From positions 6,519 to 70,518 of the forward strand of contig CAZWAW010000001.1 in assembly GCA_964632025.1 (NCBI GenBank): DNA of 64,000 bases. The letters run 5' to 3'. Below, piece after piece: positions 27,139 to 34,883 of the stretch. A program made the position numbers and the translations under genes. This DNA is from an uncultured Sporosarcina sp. (GTDB taxonomy: Bacteria; Bacillota; Bacilli; Bacillales_A; Planococcaceae). Position 1 is the stretch's first letter, and each line of letters starts with the position of its first letter. The notes beneath the pieces were generated by a model, which did no database searches, was not told the DNA's origin, and worked only from the letters and a program-made list of their open reading frames with translations.

Positions 27139-28077
27139 AATTTTCGGAAAAATCTTTCTTGCAGCTATAAACAACCAAGTACATAGGATAAAAGGGAACG
27201 TCAGTGCAGGAAGTCCAAGCGGGTTAAGAAGGAACTCCAAGCCTGCAGTAACCGGAACTGTCAAGGTGGCAGCTACTATCCCAGTCAGTGGAGTTTTTTC
27301 GGGTTTATTATCAAATACGAGACTGACGGCTATGATGGTCAAAACGGCGTTGTAATTATACAAACCTAAATTCAAAGATTGTGCATCTACACCCATAAAA
27401 TAGGCAGTTAGCCAAGATACAAAGGTACCAATAATTGCATAAACCCCGAATCGCCATCCCGCTAAGAAAAGCCCGGTAAGGATGAGAGCCCCTGTCAAAA
27501 GAGAGTCAATGATGAAGACTTCGCCGATACCTTTTATCAATCCAACAATTAAAGTCGGTGTCCCCTCTGTTTGCAAATTCCAGCGTGCGGGGGAGCTTAT
27601 AACAAAACCTGGATCCATATGAAGGACATCGGTCCGGTAAGTAACAAGTAGCCCAATCCACGTAATAAAGACGAATGGCACCGTTAGTATAGGAATTCCC
27701 CATTTAACAATCCTTTTCGTTAGAACAGCCATTACTAAAGCGGCAATAGCGGCGGCAATCAAAGCAATCAGCCAGCGATTATTCCCCGTTAAAAAAAGAA
27801 TGACGGCCATTCCACTTAAAACAGAATTGAAACTGTAAATCCCAGCGTGAATTAGTGAACGATCTCCATCAAAATATTGTGCGGTAATCGTTCCGACTAA
27901 AGAGGAAAGAAAAGCCATTAGGCCAAGGAATGGAGAATAAAGTGTGATGCCAATTAGAATGAGAAATCCTGAAAAAGCATTATCAACTAGAATAACTTGC
28001 GAAAATCCCTTTAATGACGACGAAATAAGTAATATGAACTTATTAAGAACAGTGGGTTTAGCGTTAATTTGCTGCAT
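27136..28077 (-). CDS. urea transporter (UT family)
   Basis: 313 aa. It has the N-terminal FSQVILVDNAFSGFLILIG motif and the internally duplicated 5+5 TM pattern typical of UT channels. Confidence 0.8.
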   Translation of the reverse strand: MQQINAKPTVLNKFILLISSSLKGFSQVILVDNAFSGFLILIGITLYSPFLGLMAFLSSLVGTITAQYFDGDRSLIHAGIYSFNSVLSGMAVILFLTGNNRWLIALIAAAIAALVMAVLTKRIVKWGIPILTVPFVFITWIGLLVTYRTDVLHMDPGFVISSPARWNLQTEGTPTLIVGLIKGIGEVFIIDSLLTGALILTGLFLAGWRFGVYAIIGTFVSWLTAYFMGVDAQSLNLGLYNYNAVLTIIAVSLVFDNKPEKTPLTGIVAATLTVPVTAGLEFLLNPLGLPALTFPFILCTWLFIAARKIFPKI

Positions 28078-28264
28078 GTGGACATCTCCTGTGTATTATT
28101 TGCATTAGTTGGATCAAAACTAGTTGTCCAAAGAACACGGAAATAAGTGAAATAAAGTACCTTTTCAATACTATTTAAGTATAGTACCATAAAAAGGGCT
28201 TTACTTATACAAAAAAAGGTGTAAAATAATATTTTGTAAATAAAAGTTCATTTAGGAGTGACTA

Positions 28265-28489
28265 ATGAAATTATCAGAGAAAAAAGTATTAATTGCCACG
28301 GGGATATTGTTTGTAATTGTCGCGGCCATGTTGAACCTCGGCAACAAAGTGATTGCTGAGAACATTGTGAATCAGCCTAGTATAGAAATCGTTTCATCAT
28401 CTTATAACGTCAATGATGGAAAACTGACTTTGGAATTCGAAAAATCGACTAAAGAATTACTATTCTTATCGAATATCGTCATTCGATAA
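28265..28489 (+). CDS. small membrane-anchored hypothetical protein, probably disrupted at its 3' end
   Basis: 74 aa. ATG follows AGGAGTG and the N-terminus has a TM anchor. The reading frame ends inside a perfect inverted repeat. A further 32 sense codons (EPTRQNDYFLVEAYISELTQGDMVRIIIEATV) continue in another frame to about 28610. Confidence 0.35.
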   Translation: MKLSEKKVLIATGILFVIVAAMLNLGNKVIAENIVNQPSIEIVSSSYNVNDGKLTLEFEKSTKELLFLSNIVIR

Positions 28490-28498
28490 GAATAGTAA
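28457..28498. repeat. perfect 18-bp inverted repeat with 6-nt spacer
   Basis: ttactattcttatcgaat (28457-28474), atcgtc, then attcgataagaatagtaa (28481-28498). I checked it base by base. No U tract follows. Confidence 0.9.
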
Positions 28499-28711
28499 TT
28501 CGTTTAGTAGAGAGCCTACAAGGCAGAATGATTATTTTCTAGTTGAAGCCTATATTTCCGAATTAACTCAAGGAGATATGGTAAGAATTATAATAGAAGC
28601 TACTGTTTAACAAAGGAATTAGAGATGGAACACAAAATACAAATGTTGAACGCATTCAAGAGCTTTTAGGTGCAATATCCATGTATTCATTATAAGATTG
28701 AAAAACCTATG

Positions 28712-28747
28712 ACTGATTGTCTCCGAATATGGAGCAATCAGTTTTTG
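28712..28747 (+). terminator. rho-independent terminator insulating the helicase operon from upstream transcription
   Basis: Stem actgattg(t)ctcc/ggagcaatcagt with loop gaatat, followed by ttttt. Confidence 0.65.
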
Positions 28748-28905
28748 ATTGTCCGAATATAGGGCTAGATATGCGGTCCCTTTAAATTAGGATAATTGTC
28801 AGCCCTTATTAGTATTTGGACCAATTGATTGTTTGTATACATTTTTCCTGAATACAGTGTCATACTTATTTAATAGAACCTATTTACGAAAGGAAGGCAT
28901 GCTTA

Positions 28906-31900
28906 ATGGGACATAAAACAACCATAAATGAGACGGTGCGATGTGGGCTTGAAATTACGGCTAACGCACGCAAAGAACTCATGAAATGGTCAAAAGATGA
29001 GCACGCCTTTTTTTCGATGCAGGTTGCCTTCGATGTACATATTGAAAAGCGCCCAACTAATAAACAAGGCAATATGTCGTTTTCGCTGTTCTTCGATAAT
29101 GGCTCGAATGAAGTCTTAGCTAAACGTTTAGACAATAGAATAGCCGTAATGGAATGTGTTTATCAAAATGATGGTTTTCTAGCAACAGGTTTTCACGTAA
29201 GGGGACGCAGAGAGCCCGTACAGACGAATAGACGTCTTCCTGTACGGTTAAAGTTTCTTGTGGGCCGTAGCACTGGCGTCGCGATGCCAATCGGGTTGTA
29301 CACAAGCATCCGGGAATTGCCAATTGCACAAGAACGCTCTGAGTATGTAAAGAAGAGAATTGCCAGCTGGGAAGGTTATTTACGTATACAAGAAAGCAAT
29401 GCGGATGTCGCAGATTTGACAGCGGCTTTTTCAATGGCCAGTTTTAATGAAGATTTCAGTAAATTAAGTATTGTTTGTAGTGGAATAAAAGGAAATGAAT
29501 GGAATACAGTTAAAGGGTTTAGTGCCAAGATGAAAGGGCTACCGAATGACATTGGTAGCGTTATAAATACAGATAGGTCTAAGAAAGTTATTGAAATCGA
29601 ATTGAGTCGGAATTATAAAGAGCTGGCTAGGCGAAATGAATGGCAGCCTAAATCTTTTAAGGAAGTCGTGTTCAGTAACTTTGCCGAACTTAGCCAAGTA
29701 AAAAGACTTAGGAAAGGTTTTAAAGATCTTCAAGATGGCCTTGCAGCCAATGCGAACTTAGAAAAGGTTCTTTTTGAGGAGCGGCCCGTTGTACGCATTT
29801 CGAAAAAACAGCAAGAACTTGTTTTTCATAACGAGTTAAATGAATACCAACAAGAAGCTGTAACTGGCGCAATGACATCAAATGATCTGTACGTGATTCA
29901 GGGTCCTCCAGGGACTGGAAAGACGACGGTTATCTCTGAGATATGTCATCAAAATGTCAAGGCAGGGTTGCGTACGCTTGTCGCCTCACAAGCAAATCTA
30001 GCAGTGGACAATGCACTCGGAAGATTGTTAGCCCATCAAGATATTCGAATATTACGGTATGGTCGAACAGATAGCATTGAAGAAGAAGGAAAAAAGTTTA
30101 TTGAAGAAAATGTAGCATTGAACTGGAAAAACGAAACGTTAGAAGCTGTGAATAATCAACTTCAGTCAAATTCGATTAAAGAGCAGCAACTCAAAGATGA
30201 TCTAGCTAGTTGTAAAGTACGATTGGAAAAACTTCAACTTGAATTGCTGTCAATAGATGAAAAGGTAAAGCAAAAAAAAGAGGCTGAAGCGCAACATCTT
30301 ATCCTTGTTAGTGAAATCGTGAAGCTCGGTAAAAAAGCAGTGATTTATAAAAAAGAACGCGAGGAACTAGTAGAAAAAGAGGCTGTGTTGAACCAACTAG
30401 CCGATGCCTTAATCGTGGAAATCAATCGACTTGAACAAATCATACAAATAGAAAACATAAGTCCAGAGACCATAGATCAGATGGAGAAATTAGAACCTCA
30501 AATAGAGAAAATACGTCATTACATAAGCTATCGTCAAACAATACAAATGATTGACGAGACAGAAAATGCTATCGCAATTATAGGTAAAGAACTTGAATTA
30601 AAAAGTAATAAAATCGATACGATTCATGTGTTTGTGAAACAGCTAGATTCAATAACCAAAATTGATTTATTAAAAAATCGGTTAGAATTTTTCGGAATTG
30701 TGCCGACATTTAATATGAATTGGAAAATGACCGAACTAAATAAGGTGATTGATTCAATTAAATCAGACACGTCTAGCGACGAATGCAGTGATTGGCAAGA
30801 ACTACAAAATCGACTATTAGCCGCTATTGAGATGATAGAGCGTTTGTTGAAAGACCATGGTTTCCTACCAAATGCAGTTAAAAGAACTGCAAATCAAAAA
30901 TATAGTTCAGTAAAAGATATTCATGGGCTTATTAATCGTGTTGGTAAGTTTTTAATTGATCCTTCGACTAAAAGTAGTCTTGAAACGAGAAATTATTCGG
31001 CTCAAAAATATGACAATCTCGATAAAATAGCCATTGCTTTGGAAATGTTACGTGAAAGAAAGAATTATGTGCAGACACAGCGCGGAAACTTAGAAAAACA
31101 AAATCAAATCAGGTTGGATGCCAAAAAAATGTTTGCAGATATTAAGACAGAAATAATCGATCACACTCATCAATTCATAACAGAAATAGAACAGGAAAGA
31201 AGCGCAATACAGCGCAATGCAGAAAGTCACCAAATAACGCTAAATGACCTCCGGCGAACAGCTGAAAAATTACAAAAAGAGGTAGAAACTGTCGATGTAA
31301 CAGTATCACTCAGTGAAGTGAAAATACAATTGCAGCAAAAAGAACAAGTCTATTCCGATTATATAGATAAGAAGGCATCGCTTAATCAATATACCTATGA
31401 GCTGGAAACCAAAAAAAGCGATGTCGACGTTAATGCTCAAAAATTGCAGAACAATAGAGCTACACTTCAAGCCATTAGCGATGAACTTGAATTGGTAAAT
31501 GAAGAGCGTCTTAAACATGAAAGACTACTAGTGCCCCTGGTGGAATTATTGGACCAGAATCCCGAAGAACAGCGTCAACAAGCGCAAGCTTCTATCATGG
31601 CTTTATCGAAAAGTATGAAGAAACTTAAAATAGATAAAGAGCGTTTACCTATCAGCCATTCACTCCAACAAGAATGGAGGACACTACTCACAGAAGCGAA
31701 TGAATATGATCTTGACGAAATTCGGAAAATGTATGTGCAACATGCGAATGTCATTGGGACAACTTGTGTCGCGTCTGCGAGACGTGATTTCATGGAGGAG
31801 TATCCGACATTCGATGTGGTCATTATCGATGAGGTTTCTAAAGCAACACCTCCCGAATTGTTACTGCCAATGTTAAAAGGGAAAAAGATTATTTTAGTTG

Positions 31901-32766
31901 GGGATCATCATCAGTTACCGCCACTTATGGGGCAAGATACATTAGAGGAATTGCTTGAGGAAAGTGACAATAATGAAGAAAAAAATGAACTAGAAAAACT
32001 GTTGAAAGAATCACTATTTGAACGTCTTTTTAGAACATTGCCGAAGCAAAACAAAACGATGCTCGCCATCCAGTACCGGATGCATGAAAGCATCATGGAA
32101 ACAATTACGCCTTTTTACAAAGAAGGAAATTATGGTCTTCAGTGTGGTTTAACGGACTCTGATTCTGTTCGTGATCATTTGATTGAATCCCGCTATGTGC
32201 AACGAAATGATCATCTTCTCTGGTTTGACATGCCGAATGAACCGAAGTATTTCGAGGAGAAGGTTAAAGGGGGAACAAGTCGCTTTAATCAAGCTGAATT
32301 GACGATGATTAAAAACCTCTTGATGGATTTAGATAAGGCAACTGAAAATGCGAAGAATGCTGGAAGAATGAAGCAAGAAGACAAAAAAAGTGTTGGTGTA
32401 ATAAGCTTCTATGGTGAACAGGTAAAAAGGGTAGATCGGTTGATTCAGCAAGAACTAATCCCGCAGCATTTACATTGCAGAACGGGATCAGTAGACAAGT
32501 TTCAAGGCATGGAAATGGACATCATTATTTTAAGTTTCGTTCGGAATCACCAAGATAAGGGGGGAGACATCGGATTTGCGAGGGACTACAGACGTCTAAA
32601 TGTTGCTTTGTCGCGTGCACGTGAGTTGCTCATAATCGTGGGGAGTTCGGGTATGTTCACGATGAGAACAAAACATCCAAGTTCCAGGGAAATGTATGGC
32701 CGTCTTTTAGAAAGCATCAAGTTGAAAAACGGATTTAGAAATCTTGAAGGTGCTGTTAAATCGTGA
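28906..32766 (+). CDS. Upf1/DNA2-like superfamily 1B helicase (AAA_11/AAA_12 type) with ~320-aa unknown N-terminal domain and ~530-aa coiled-coil insertion
   Basis: 1,286 aa. RBS AGGAAGG lies 8 nt before ATG 28906. Motifs: I GPPGTGKT (aa 333-340, nt 29902-29925); Ia TLVASQANLAVDNAL; II IIDEVSKA (DE at aa 975-976, nt 31828-31833); III ILVGDHHQLPP; IV AIQYRMH; V DKFQGMEMDIIILS; VI RRLNVALSRARELLIIVG. Aa ~400-930 between Ia and II are heptad-rich and charged (coiled coil). Confidence 0.9.
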   Translation: MGHKTTINETVRCGLEITANARKELMKWSKDEHAFFSMQVAFDVHIEKRPTNKQGNMSFSLFFDNGSNEVLAKRLDNRIAVMECVYQNDGFLATGFHVRGRREPVQTNRRLPVRLKFLVGRSTGVAMPIGLYTSIRELPIAQERSEYVKKRIASWEGYLRIQESNADVADLTAAFSMASFNEDFSKLSIVCSGIKGNEWNTVKGFSAKMKGLPNDIGSVINTDRSKKVIEIELSRNYKELARRNEWQPKSFKEVVFSNFAELSQVKRLRKGFKDLQDGLAANANLEKVLFEERPVVRISKKQQELVFHNELNEYQQEAVTGAMTSNDLYVIQGPPGTGKTTVISEICHQNVKAGLRTLVASQANLAVDNALGRLLAHQDIRILRYGRTDSIEEEGKKFIEENVALNWKNETLEAVNNQLQSNSIKEQQLKDDLASCKVRLEKLQLELLSIDEKVKQKKEAEAQHLILVSEIVKLGKKAVIYKKEREELVEKEAVLNQLADALIVEINRLEQIIQIENISPETIDQMEKLEPQIEKIRHYISYRQTIQMIDETENAIAIIGKELELKSNKIDTIHVFVKQLDSITKIDLLKNRLEFFGIVPTFNMNWKMTELNKVIDSIKSDTSSDECSDWQELQNRLLAAIEMIERLLKDHGFLPNAVKRTANQKYSSVKDIHGLINRVGKFLIDPSTKSSLETRNYSAQKYDNLDKIAIALEMLRERKNYVQTQRGNLEKQNQIRLDAKKMFADIKTEIIDHTHQFITEIEQERSAIQRNAESHQITLNDLRRTAEKLQKEVETVDVTVSLSEVKIQLQQKEQVYSDYIDKKASLNQYTYELETKKSDVDVNAQKLQNNRATLQAISDELELVNEERLKHERLLVPLVELLDQNPEEQRQQAQASIMALSKSMKKLKIDKERLPISHSLQQEWRTLLTEANEYDLDEIRKMYVQHANVIGTTCVASARRDFMEEYPTFDVVIIDEVSKATPPELLLPMLKGKKIILVGDHHQLPPLMGQDTLEELLEESDNNEEKNELEKLLKESLFERLFRTLPKQNKTMLAIQYRMHESIMETITPFYKEGNYGLQCGLTDSDSVRDHLIESRYVQRNDHLLWFDMPNEPKYFEEKVKGGTSRFNQAELTMIKNLLMDLDKATENAKNAGRMKQEDKKSVGVISFYGEQVKRVDRLIQQELIPQHLHCRTGSVDKFQGMEMDIIILSFVRNHQDKGGDIGFARDYRRLNVALSRARELLIIVGSSGMFTMRTKHPSSREMYGRLLESIKLKNGFRNLEGAVKS

Positions 32767-32786
32767 TTTGTAGGGAGGTCCCTGTT

Positions 32787-33542
32787 TTGAATGACTTAAA
32801 AGGAAGGTTAACGAAAGAACTGCAACAGGATTTTAATGTGAAAATAATGGGCTCTCTGTCATGGAGTTTACCTGTTAATTCAATCGAGATTGTATACCAG
32901 ACCGTTATGCGAACGAAAGTGGATATTCTTATGAAAATGATGTTGATTGCATTTGGAAAAGCCGATATTGCAACTGCTGAAGAGTTGAGTGACATTCTTC
33001 TCGTCGAACAGCTCTTTATCAATGATTTGATTGATAAAATGTCGAGAACTGGTGTAATCGAAAAAAGAGAAGGGTTTTACTCTTTAACAGAAGTTGGGGT
33101 CCGGCAGTTTAAAACAGGTATTTTTGTACATGAACCAGAAATAGGCTCAAGGCAGGCGCTTTTCAGTCCGTACCATGAATCTTTTTTGTATGGAGAAATT
33201 AAGAATATTGCGTATGAAGAGATGGAACTTTATCGTTTTAAAAGCGAATTGGATGATTGGACTGTAGCGACGCTGGAGGATTCGATTCTAATTGATGCGC
33301 TTAAGACGATGGGCATAGAATCAGGTGAAGGAAACGTTCAGATTGTTGTGTCCGAAATTGTAACTGCTTCTGACAATCAAGTCGACTTGGTTCCGTGTAT
33401 TGAATTTCATCTGTATAACGAGGCAGAGGATTTACTCTATGCAAGGGTGTGGAATACGCTGTCTGAACAATGGGATGAAACGCTCGAAGCACAATTGAAT
33501 GAAAAAGAACGGAAGAAGTGGCGGGGAATTTATTTGTTATGA
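32787..33542 (+). CDS. winged-helix (MarR/PadR-like) domain protein of unknown function, helicase partner
   Basis: The frame is open from GTG 32763, which overlaps the helicase stop (GTGA). The better start is TTG 32787, 8 nt after GGGAGG (32773-32778). A wHTH-like segment is DIATAEELSDILLVEQLFINDLIDKMSRTGVIEKREGFYSLTEVG. I cannot assign the acidic C-terminal ~140 aa. Confidence 0.7.
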   Translation: MNDLKGRLTKELQQDFNVKIMGSLSWSLPVNSIEIVYQTVMRTKVDILMKMMLIAFGKADIATAEELSDILLVEQLFINDLIDKMSRTGVIEKREGFYSLTEVGVRQFKTGIFVHEPEIGSRQALFSPYHESFLYGEIKNIAYEEMELYRFKSELDDWTVATLEDSILIDALKTMGIESGEGNVQIVVSEIVTASDNQVDLVPCIEFHLYNEAEDLLYARVWNTLSEQWDETLEAQLNEKERKKWRGIYLL

Positions 33543-33660
33543 CCATTTGAAATGATTATAGATATGTTGGAATTAAGAATCCTCTTAAATTCGCTACGGC
33601 ATCTTTGCTTAGTCAAAATTAGGTATGCATATCTTGCACATACATAGATATCAAAGTTAA

Positions 33661-33699
33661 AACGGGAGACTCCTTTGCTTGAGGAAATCTCCCGTTTTT
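33661..33699 (+). terminator. rho-independent terminator of the helicase operon
   Basis: Stem acgggaga/tctcccgt with an internally paired loop, followed by ttttt. It lies 120 nt after the partner-gene stop. Confidence 0.7.
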
Positions 33700-33924
33700 A
33701 ATTGTGCAAACTATTTGAAGAAATGCTAGATACACGACCTCTGAAATTGGTCATATGTGAGTGGATAGGATCAGACACTTGGGTTAGAGTTGATTTCAAA
33801 ACAAATTAAGATAGTTTTTTCGAAAAAGTTATGAAGTTAGGGGAAAAAGAGTATATTGGCTAAATTCACTATATTTAAGTGAGCGGAGGAGGATTTACCT
33901 GCGGCATCGCTAAATGGTGAGTGT

Positions 33925-33977
33925 AAAAAAAACAAAGTGTGCTGTATGAATTACTAACTCATGCAGCACACTTTTTA
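33925..33977. terminator. bidirectional terminator-like hairpin
   Basis: 16-bp stem aaagtgtgctgtatga/tcatgcagcacacttt with one mismatch, flanked by an A8 run upstream and T5 downstream. Confidence 0.5.
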
Positions 33978-34229
33978 TTGAAATCTTTAATTCGTTTTAT
34001 AATAATGAATCTACCCAGTACAATATCCCAGCTTTATTGGCATAATTACAAATACAAAAGTCTACCCTAAGCCATGTATTATATGGAGTAAAAAGAACGA
34101 GTGTTTGTAAGTCGAGTGGTAGCCGATGTGTGTCTCTGGGTATTTATTAATTCAGTACGTATGACAAAGTATTGCGACGGCTTAAAAAAGGTAGGTTCTT
34201 TTTTCTTTAGAAGTGAATGAGTAGTACAT

Positions 34230-34883
34230 CTACTTACTTGAATTTAGAATAATCTCCGTTATATAGTCCATCGTGATTTTCGAAGCCTTTTCGACTTCAT
34301 GGGTCGTTCGGTTATTTAATAAGTTAGTGAGCATACCTTGCCAAATTAGAATCGTCATTTCGTTGACCTTATCAATGTCAGCATTATCGATGAAACCCTC
34401 ATTTGCAGCAATTTCCAAAATGGACCGACCCCTTTTTGACACACTCCGTTCAAATAAAATGACTTTTAGTTCTTCTGGAAAATTAATCAGATCACTAGGG
34501 TAAATCTCGTAGTAATCTGCCAAGAGCTTTTCAGGATGATTACCTAAATCCATTATAAATACGGCATGAAAGATTTGCGGCTGTTGAAAGGAGTGCTTAC
34601 AAAAACATTCCCAAGAGAGTATGTATTTTTCCAATGGATTTCTCCCTTTTTCAATAGCGCTTCCCACGTCATCCGTATACGTTTTAAGGAACTTCATGGA
34701 AGCGAAAAATATCAAATGTGAAATCTCCGTAAAATAATTGTAAATCGTTGCACTGTTATAGCCCGCCCGATCGGCTACTTTTCGGATTGTGACATTTTCA
34801 ATCCCTTCTTCTTCAATTATTTCCGCTGTCGCATCAACAAAATATTTCCACATCCGGCTTCTTTGAATCTTCTTATTCCCCAT
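34230..34883 (-). CDS. TetR family transcriptional regulator (BetI-like context)
   Basis: 217 aa with the TetR HTH (IRKVADRAGYNSATIYNYF). It is divergent from the BCCT transporter gene. Confidence 0.85.
   Translation of the reverse strand: MGNKKIQRSRMWKYFVDATAEIIEEEGIENVTIRKVADRAGYNSATIYNYFTEISHLIFFASMKFLKTYTDDVGSAIEKGRNPLEKYILSWECFCKHSFQQPQIFHAVFIMDLGNHPEKLLADYYEIYPSDLINFPEELKVILFERSVSKRGRSILEIAANEGFIDNADIDKVNEMTILIWQGMLTNLLNNRTTHEVEKASKITMDYITEIILNSSK

Follow-up and report, generated by a model that had tools for sequence, protein, structure and literature searches.

A Upf1-like helicase of an uncultured Sporosarcina with a large, predicted helical insert in RecA1 and a nuclease-free winged-helix partner gene

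We describe two adjacent genes in a 64,000-nucleotide stretch of DNA from an uncultured Sporosarcina sp. of the family Planococcaceae (GenBank assembly GCA_964632025.1, contig CAZWAW010000001.1, positions 6,519 to 70,518), referred to below as the window. The first encodes a helicase of superfamily 1 (SF1), designated P0001, and the second a small protein with a predicted winged helix-turn-helix (wHTH), designated P0122. An insert of ~530 residues (aa 400-929) interrupts the first RecA-like domain (RecA1) of the helicase and was predicted by AlphaFold2 (AF2) to be almost wholly helical, with long helices of 116, 63, 95, 81 and 44 residues. An original prediction, made from the letters of the DNA alone, had placed a coiled-coil arm at 30103-31693, which corresponds to helicase aa 400-930. 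This kind of insertion is already known from comparative genomics. What appears to be new here is the combination of a probable hairpin stalk of fixed length with a partner that resembles MkoB of the Mokosh systems and has no nuclease, kept as a single-copy operon by most members of a bacterial family. The features of the locus are as follows.

28906..32766, + strand: Upf1-like SF1 helicase gene (P0001), a single open reading frame (ORF) of 1286 aa in translation
Upstream of the P0001 ATG, + strand: Shine-Dalgarno-like ribosome-binding site, AAAGGAAGG
28906..29310, + strand: N-terminal region, aa 1-135, family unassigned; column entropy 0.8-1.5 (121 homologues)
29326..29733, + strand: stalk helices and beta-rich 1B-like domain, aa 141-276 (AF2: helix 141-166, strands 171-257, helix 259-276)
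29803..30102, + strand: first part of RecA1 with motifs I and Ia, motif I at nt 29902-29925; near-invariant in 100 homologues
30103..30651, + strand: predicted outgoing stalk strand, aa 400-582 (AF2 helices 400-515 and 520-582)
30661..30999, + strand: predicted distal part, aa 586-698 (AF2: five short helices and a loop at 651-668; turn placed by inference near aa 670)
31000..31692, + strand: predicted returning stalk strand, aa 699-929 (AF2 helices 699-793, 802-882 and 886-929)
31693..31995, + strand: second part of RecA1 with motifs II and III, motif II (DEVS) at nt 31828-31839
31996..32715, + strand: RecA2 domain (Pfam AAA_12 at aa 1033-1248, expectation value (E) 3.1e-44)
32787..33542, + strand: partner gene (P0122, from residue 9 of the listed ORF), ~251 aa, MkoB N-terminal wHTH module without a phospholipase D (PLD) domain

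Helicase core and position of the insert

P0001 carries GPPGTGKT (motif I, aa 333-340), motif Ia (aa 359-369), DEVS (motif II, aa 975-978), GDHHQLPP (motif III, aa 999-1006) and RRLNVALSRA (motif VI, aa 1229-1238). Since all of its SF1 motifs are invariant among 100 homologues, the protein is likely to be an active translocase. It has the marks of Upf1-like helicases, namely the SF1 motifs, two RecA-like domains, and a stalk with a 1B-type domain before RecA1, and the Pfam AAA_11 match is split across aa 310-1007. A sequence search of the Protein Data Bank returned IGHMBP2, DNA2, UPF1/Nam7, SETX/Sen1, Aquarius and ZNFX1 as the nearest solved proteins. An AF2 model of aa 87-1286 was built from an alignment of 100 sequences (P0001 and 99 homologues of 28-86% identity), with a mean pLDDT (the predicted score of the local distance difference test) of 80.9 (77.1-80.9 over five models) and a predicted template modelling (TM) score of 0.59. 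Its fold matches were UPF1 (Z 23.9, root-mean-square deviation (rmsd) 6.1, 541 residues aligned), IGHMBP2 (Z 23.5, rmsd 8.4, 562 aligned), DNA2 (Z 23.2, rmsd 7.5, 563 aligned) and Sen1 (Z 22.7, rmsd 9.7, 583 aligned), with SETX and ZNFX1 also among them, and Foldseek gave target-normalised TM-scores of up to 0.70 against UPF1 and IGHMBP2. These searches with the whole model returned helicase cores only and say nothing on the insert. P0001 is a Upf1-like (SF1B) helicase with a very large insert in RecA1.

The N-terminal region, aa 1-135, had no match in Pfam, NCBIfam or PADLOC, and a search of the ESM Atlas with aa 1-140 gave no usable match. This conserved region occupies the place of the kinase-like domain in canonical MkoA, the Mokosh helicase.

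Motif Ia and motif II (aa 359-369 and 975) are separated by ~605 residues, close to the ~590 originally counted. Queries made of the two flanks of the insert aligned with DNA2 at 626-721 and resumed at 728-797, leaving ~6 residues between; with IGHMBP2 at 186-269 and again at 342-405, leaving ~72; and with UPF1 at chain positions 180-252 and 315-379, leaving ~60-70. The interval of 60-70 residues in IGHMBP2 and UPF1 is their subdomain 1C. By these alignments, the insert takes the place that subdomain 1C has in Upf1 and IGHMBP2 and the 'prong' in Sen1, and its two ends join the RecA1 fold at points only a few residues apart. The original prediction had assigned stalk, 1B and 1C elements to the interval between motifs Ia and II. 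For 1C this stands, whereas in the alignments with IGHMBP2, UPF1 and DNA2 the stalk and 1B precede motif I; aa 141-276 align with IGHMBP2 from residue 137 onward.

Shape, packing and conservation of the insert

Between the outgoing and returning helices, AF2 gave five short helices (586-595, 602-620, 627-650, 669-684 and 686-693) and an 18-residue loop (651-668). The pLDDT in 10-residue blocks along the arms was mostly about 69-89. The flanks of the insert had been called K/E/Q/L-dominated, and the fraction of these residues is indeed 0.47 and 0.44 in the two flanks vs 0.27-0.35 elsewhere; both are poor in Pro and Gly, with two of each in aa 400-590. Structure prediction had been proposed as a check on the arm, and the long helices modelled in the insert agree with it. 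The segment at aa ~595-705 had been taken for a non-helical apex. It does differ from the arms, being richer in aromatic residues and a site of clustered insertions and deletions (indels; 615-621, 661-664 and 686-692), but its short helices are at odds with the rest of that description, as is a hydrophobicity period of 3.62 (z 3.6), which is that of ordinary packed helices.

Averaged over the family, hydrophobicity has a period of 3.48 in helix 400-515 (z 5.6 against shuffles), 3.48 in helix 802-882 (z 8.3) and 3.54 in helix 699-793 (z 4.0); RecA2 has no such signal. Indels of 7 residues occur among relatives at 731, 755, 765 and 790, and indels cluster in the return strand (731-733 and 787-797) as well as in the distal part. 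In near relatives they fall mainly in the distal part and, of the arms, in the return strand only, so they are uninformative on pairing across the hairpin. Covariation was measured as mutual information between the outgoing and returning halves, summed along anti-diagonals. The band peaks at i+j = 1340, where the anchors predict 400+935 = 1335, and the peak lies above the best band of every one of 300 column permutations (0/300 reached it). The antiparallel band is about twice the best parallel band (0.0147 vs 0.0082). When the calculation was repeated without gap states and with a 7-letter alphabet, the top eight band centres were 1337-1344 and 0/200 permutations reached the value.

From the closeness of the anchors in RecA1, the ~3.5-residue periodicity, the 7-residue indels and the covariation band, we infer that the insert is one antiparallel hairpin, which would turn near residue 670 given the register of i+j≈1340. 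Short helices would interrupt the last ~65 residues of the outgoing strand, and the continuous two-helix part would be ~26 nm long (~179 residues at ~0.15 nm each).

The 120 best database homologues, from Sporosarcina, Psychrobacillus, Filibacter and the like, were all 1257-1304 aa long with 98-100% query coverage. Column entropy among 121 homologues was 2.0-2.6 in the arms, 1.6-2.0 in the distal part and 0.2-0.9 in the motor. Within the family the length of the insert is nearly constant, with few gaps, while its sequence drifts: W407 and W924 are its only invariant residues among 100 homologues, and T411, L637, L648 and L928 are at least 90% conserved. Of the two properties that the original prediction had named for comparison among homologues, length is thus kept, whereas the apex reaches this level of conservation only at L637 and L648.

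The full-length stalk-bearing helicase was found in 95 of 121 genomes and 17 of 21 genera of the window's family, almost always in one copy. It appeared as one continuous match in 84 of the 95, with both ends in one ORF of ~1250 aa in 10, and split over two contigs in one. Three more genomes of the family had weak partial matches only, and in one genome (G034) the full-length match was accompanied by another, more distant one. Nothing was found in favour of an artefact of assembly or annotation, such as two fused genes or a mobile insertion, and it is contradicted by the lengths and coverage of the 120 listed homologues, by the continuous near-full-length matches in 84 genomes and the single ORFs in 10 more, and by the presence of the stretch in DNA runs of several studies; we rejected it, and its probability is negligible. 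No RNA run was among those listed as containing the stretch.

The insert could also be a passive spacer, either a single-alpha-helix (charged, non-packed) linker or a neutral expansion, with no specific partner. Its high K/E/Q content and fast sequence drift are what such a spacer would have, yet the hydrophobic periodicity of 3.5 residues is significant, the two halves covary, and the length is conserved with intact frames in 95 of the 121 family genomes. We consider a spacer very improbable, and the single-alpha-helix form was ruled out on the periodicity and the covariation of the two halves.

A search of 1.84 billion cluster representatives was used to place the insert among more distant relatives; 148 of the best 150 matches were fetched, and both flanks were recognisable in 137. 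Among these best matches, 125 of 137 have an insert of 171-1074 residues that is low in Pro and Gly, and in the remaining 12 the interval is 52-69 residues long. The insertion is therefore not peculiar to P0001 and, judged from these matches, it is a common, length-variable trait of this branch of bacterial Upf1-like helicases.

The original prediction likened the insert to an antiparallel SMC/Rad50 arm. The likeness holds in outline: a long, predicted antiparallel coiled coil leaves and re-enters an ATPase domain and bears a distinct distal element. It does not hold as kinship. The ATPase of P0001 is an SF1 helicase and not an ABC head formed by the N and C termini, and the insert, whose sole cysteines are 436 and 627, has no CxxC hook, as had been noted before; because of the SF1 ATPase and the missing zinc hook, the resemblance is one of form and not of descent. 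No hinge domain was found either, in fold searches with the whole helicase model. By analogy with SMC hinges and Rad50 hooks, the stalk could still serve as an arm for self-association, with two helicases joining through their distal parts or coiled coils to bridge or encircle nucleic acid. Such a function would suit an arm that is long and antiparallel and ends in a distal part of a different kind; its length is near-constant in the family, and the motif I to motif II distance of 642 residues recurs in a homologue from another family. It fits poorly with the lack of an ABC head and of any hinge-like or CxxC motif, and with the few conserved residues of the distal part, and we regard it as quite unlikely.

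The wHTH partner and its nuclease-bearing relatives

In the ORF list the partner gene starts at a GTG at 32763, overlapping the helicase stop. Because partner homologues are ~250 aa long, this start is probably too early; the TTG at 32787 lies 8 nt past GGGAGG and 20 nt past the helicase stop, so that the genes would be 20 nt apart and not overlapping. The AF2 model of the partner (pLDDT 88.8) consists of an N-terminal helix, a long beta-hairpin (26-52), a MarR-like wHTH (51-120; Z 11.1, rmsd 1.6, 67 residues aligned), a beta-rich part and a conserved C-terminal helix. For aa 120-259 there was no fold match in searches with the whole model; no search was made with a separate model of this part.

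Mokosh type I systems are described as a Upf1-like helicase with a Ser/Thr kinase domain and a separate PLD nuclease (bioRxiv 10.1101/2022.05.11.491447). The N-terminal region of the PADLOC MkoB profile is matched by 57 of 74 members of the partner family, with a best E of 3.4e-8. Pfam gave nothing significant for the partner, neither Pfam nor PADLOC gave a PLD match, and the ESM Atlas returned only clusters of unnamed 'hypothetical protein'. No nuclease family (HEPN, PLD or Vsr) was detected in the helicase or the partner with Pfam, NCBIfam or PADLOC, and no PLD remnant was found by tblastn in the window, including the region downstream of the partner. On profile comparison, the partner is a wHTH-containing MkoB N-terminal module without the PLD nuclease.

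The gene directly downstream of the helicase is the partner in 11 of 11 loci of a first set and in 12 of 12 of a further set, of which four came from genomes of the first. Searches with the partner found it in 279 of 301 genomes, in 16 of the 20 genera covered; the genera without it (g3, g9, g12 and g21) are the same four that have no full-length helicase. Outside the family, it occurred in two of 232 genomes of the class. This family-wide, single-copy and elsewhere rare pattern is unlike the sporadic one that is usual for defence systems.

A nuclease-bearing relative was found in a genome of another Bacilli family (G387). Its helicase has 1303 aa and the same motif I to motif II distance as P0001, 642 residues, and is followed by a 615-aa protein, of which aa 29-267 align with nearly the whole partner (31% identity, E 6e-33). 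The rest of this protein is PLD-like (Pfam PLDc_2, E 4.5e-6; PADLOC MkoB, E 3.6e-24), and the partner ends where the PLD of the 615-aa homologue would begin. A search with the 615-aa protein against 251 genomes of the class matched 17 from the window's family, each of them over ~aa 3-279 only. A search by shared words for longer, fused forms of the partner had scored none, a weak test given that the genome search found the 615-aa form. Directly after the helicase and PLD pair of this genome (L032, 9618-12337) lie a DnaJ-domain protein of 285 aa and an ankyrin-repeat protein of 621 aa, the latter matching the PADLOC candidate systems PDC-M16A and PDC-M72A; the locus may be a larger defence module.

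Canonical MkoA genes were found at three loci (L046, L047 and L049, in genomes G033, G507 and G098), with full-profile PADLOC MkoA matches at E 1e-168 to 1e-221. Kinase-type PD-T4-6 matches (E 1e-44 to 1e-52) were present in two of the three (L046 and L049), and an MkoB with the HxK(x4)D motif follows MkoA in L046 and L047. The motif I to motif II distances are 310 (L046), 161 (L047) and 179 residues (L049). Such canonical type I loci occur sporadically across these samples, for instance one in G098 and, as a second locus, one in G033; both genomes also have the PLD-less, stalk-bearing pair. Another locus (L048, 195-4773, genome G078) encodes a 1020-aa MkoA-like helicase in which motifs I and II are 336 residues apart; a 513-aa protein without a PADLOC match comes next and may be another effector type. 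The genome of the window itself has a second, partial Upf1-like match on a short contig (L002, contig C161, 2649-3533), 37% identical to aa 939-1250 and lying in a 407-aa open frame, which may be part of a canonical Mokosh-type gene.

Relation to known systems and possible role of the stalk

According to PMC11090510, CnuH helicases bear 'a large helical insertion' after Walker A, for which coiled coils were predicted, and typically precede a gene for a wHTH effector; an AF2 multimer model in that paper placed the wHTH against or near the insertion. Compared with these published descriptions, and not by sequence, P0001 is alike in being a Upf1-like helicase, in carrying past Walker A a large insertion that is predicted to be helical and in part coiled-coil, in having a stalk and an OB/1B-like element before the motor, and in being followed, 20 nt past its stop, by a gene that starts with an elongated wHTH module. 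It differs from CnuH in that no SmpB-like or RNase-toxin-like N-terminal domain was detected with Pfam, NCBIfam or PADLOC, and the partner differs from CnuE in having no HEPN, PLD or Vsr effector. Unlike in CoCoNuT systems, no McrBC-like CnuB/CnuC or TerY-P genes were among the nearby ORFs (19013 to 44426, 100 aa or longer).

The likeness to Mokosh type I is seen in the PADLOC MkoA match of P0001 (E 1.3e-110; best stretch aa 887-1273 against profile positions 716-1099 of 1112) and in the resemblance of the partner family to the N-terminal part of MkoB. The helicase is, however, well matched only over its C-terminal ~390 residues and has no kinase match in Pfam, NCBIfam or PADLOC, whereas MkoA carries one, and the partner has no PLD nuclease, which in MkoB bears an HxK(x4)D motif. 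The insert of canonical MkoA is small or none, and Mokosh type I is sporadic where the P0001 pair is family-wide and single-copy. Because both the kinase of the helicase and the PLD of the partner are missing, the pair is not Mokosh type I; on these profile and motif comparisons it is a relative of the MkoA/CnuH group. Literature searches turned up neither a solved structure of such insertions nor a test of their role, nor a PLD-less form of Mokosh; supplements of the CoCoNuT paper may list related loci.

In dynein, the stalk, and in ClpB/Hsp104, the M-domain, is an antiparallel coiled coil set in an ATPase module that couples the motor to a distal site or partner. Those proteins are AAA+ ATPases and are unrelated in sequence to the SF1 helicase P0001, which gave no sign of register sliding or chaperone binding. 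We give an even chance to the reading that the insert is an antiparallel coiled-coil stalk of ~530 residues with a small helical distal part, set at the 1C position and coupling the motor to the nuclease-free wHTH partner. P0001 belongs to a large bacterial group of MkoA/CnuH-like helicases, many of them with such a helical insertion and with a downstream gene in which a wHTH module is fused to an effector. By analogy with the dynein stalk and the ClpB M-domain, the stalk would be a platform that couples motor and wHTH partner both physically and allosterically. Since the partner has no nuclease, the pair would act as a helicase with a nucleic-acid-recognition unit and not as a helicase-nuclease.

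A complex of the stalk (aa 380-950) and the partner was predicted with a median interaction prediction score from aligned errors (ipSAE) of 0.45, the best of three controls being 0.00, and was rated 'weak support'. The mark for this rating is reached by 116 of 157 solved complexes and two of 215 mismatched pairs; only 18 of the 157 solved complexes, and both mismatched pairs, reach it at 0.60 or less. Contacts are at least 92% the same between runs, and the partner has a pLDDT of 78 or more.

Several points weigh against the coupled-stalk reading. The complex prediction did not go beyond 'weak support', and no interface was reported from it. Canonical Mokosh type I helicases with little or no insert still have an MkoB with the same wHTH module, so the stalk is not needed for a wHTH partnership. 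The distal part has no invariant polar residue and reaches 90% conservation only at its two leucines, L637 and L648. The evidence for the packing of the strands is indirect and does not come from model coordinates: helix 520-582 has its hydrophobicity peak at a period of 3.36 (z 5.4), helix 886-929 has no significant periodicity in the family average, and a stricter, reversed-and-shifted null, which keeps local autocorrelation, reached the covariation value in seven of 72 trials. Finally, the description of the arms as heptad-rich holds for the family average in three long helices (3.48-3.54), whereas a crude single-sequence heptad score exceeded the 99th percentile of composition-matched shuffles only at ~aa 421-460 and 761-800; with two such stretches, the heptad pattern is clear in the family average rather than in the single sequence.

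Some of these points would suit another role for the insert. Subdomain 1C and the Sen1 prong contact RNA, and the prong is needed for the function of Sen1. P0001 has its insert at the same point between motifs Ia and II, although 1C has ~60-70 residues in Upf1 and IGHMBP2 and the proposed hairpin of P0001 has ~530. The stalk may be an overgrown 1C 'prong'. It would lie next to the nucleic-acid channel as a probe or gate, extend into or around its target (duplex, R-loop, polymerase or ribosome) and govern unwinding or the choice of substrate, while the partner would bind at another site. The exact 1C position and the RNA contacts of 1C and the prong speak for this, as do the wHTH partners found beside helicases with little or no insert, which imply that partner binding need not involve the stalk. 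A length of ~26 nm is, however, far more than the lining of a channel needs, no part of the protein is less conserved than the arms, and the weak support for contact between stalk and partner also counts against it. We hold this role to be unlikely.

As regards the origin of the coupled stalk and partner, it is hypothesized that a pair of the Mokosh/CnuHE type lost its nuclease and became fixed in most of one Bacilli family as a single-copy, vertically inherited operon with a nuclease-independent job, the ~26 nm stalk relaying signals mechanically between a tip-bound partner and the motor. This is a tentative proposal, on the doubtful side. The job of a nuclease-free pair would be housekeeping surveillance of RNA or DNA, or a form of immunity that works through displacement only. 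In the 12 loci compared, most genera have different genes beside the pair, and synteny therefore does not settle the mode of descent.

Helical insertions of MkoA/CnuH-like helicases have so far been noted from sequence and predicted models. The locus in the window is a simple and conserved case, in which a single helicase goes with a single small partner, a nuclease is lacking and the stalk keeps its length, and it could reveal whether the stalk serves partner docking, self-association or target probing. It could also show whether a helicase module of the defence type persists in hundreds of species without a killing domain. Mokosh-like systems have been linked to the eukaryotic MOV10L1/PLD6 pair (bioRxiv 10.1101/2022.12.12.520048), and a nuclease-free module bears on how such systems sense their targets. 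Bacteria with the pair are related to easily grown Sporosarcina and Psychrobacillus.

Around the pair, the ORFs from 19013 to 44426 that reach 100 aa encode transporters, metabolic enzymes and regulators, and none of them is a defence gene. An ORF of ~140-150 aa directly upstream of the helicase is common to four of the 12 loci, all from different genera (L041, L043, L044 and L045). A search of 27900-34400 with Rfam gave two hairpin-like matches, both far below the gathering scores, and a scan for promoters and terminators found sites no more frequent than in shuffles. Between the partner and a convergent TetR-family gene lie ~690 bases (33543-34229) without an ORF of at least 45 aa. In a gene-poor stretch of 830 bases upstream of the helicase, a palindrome at 28456-28499 (- strand), listed as terminator-like, has a 20-bp stem with four G-C pairs.

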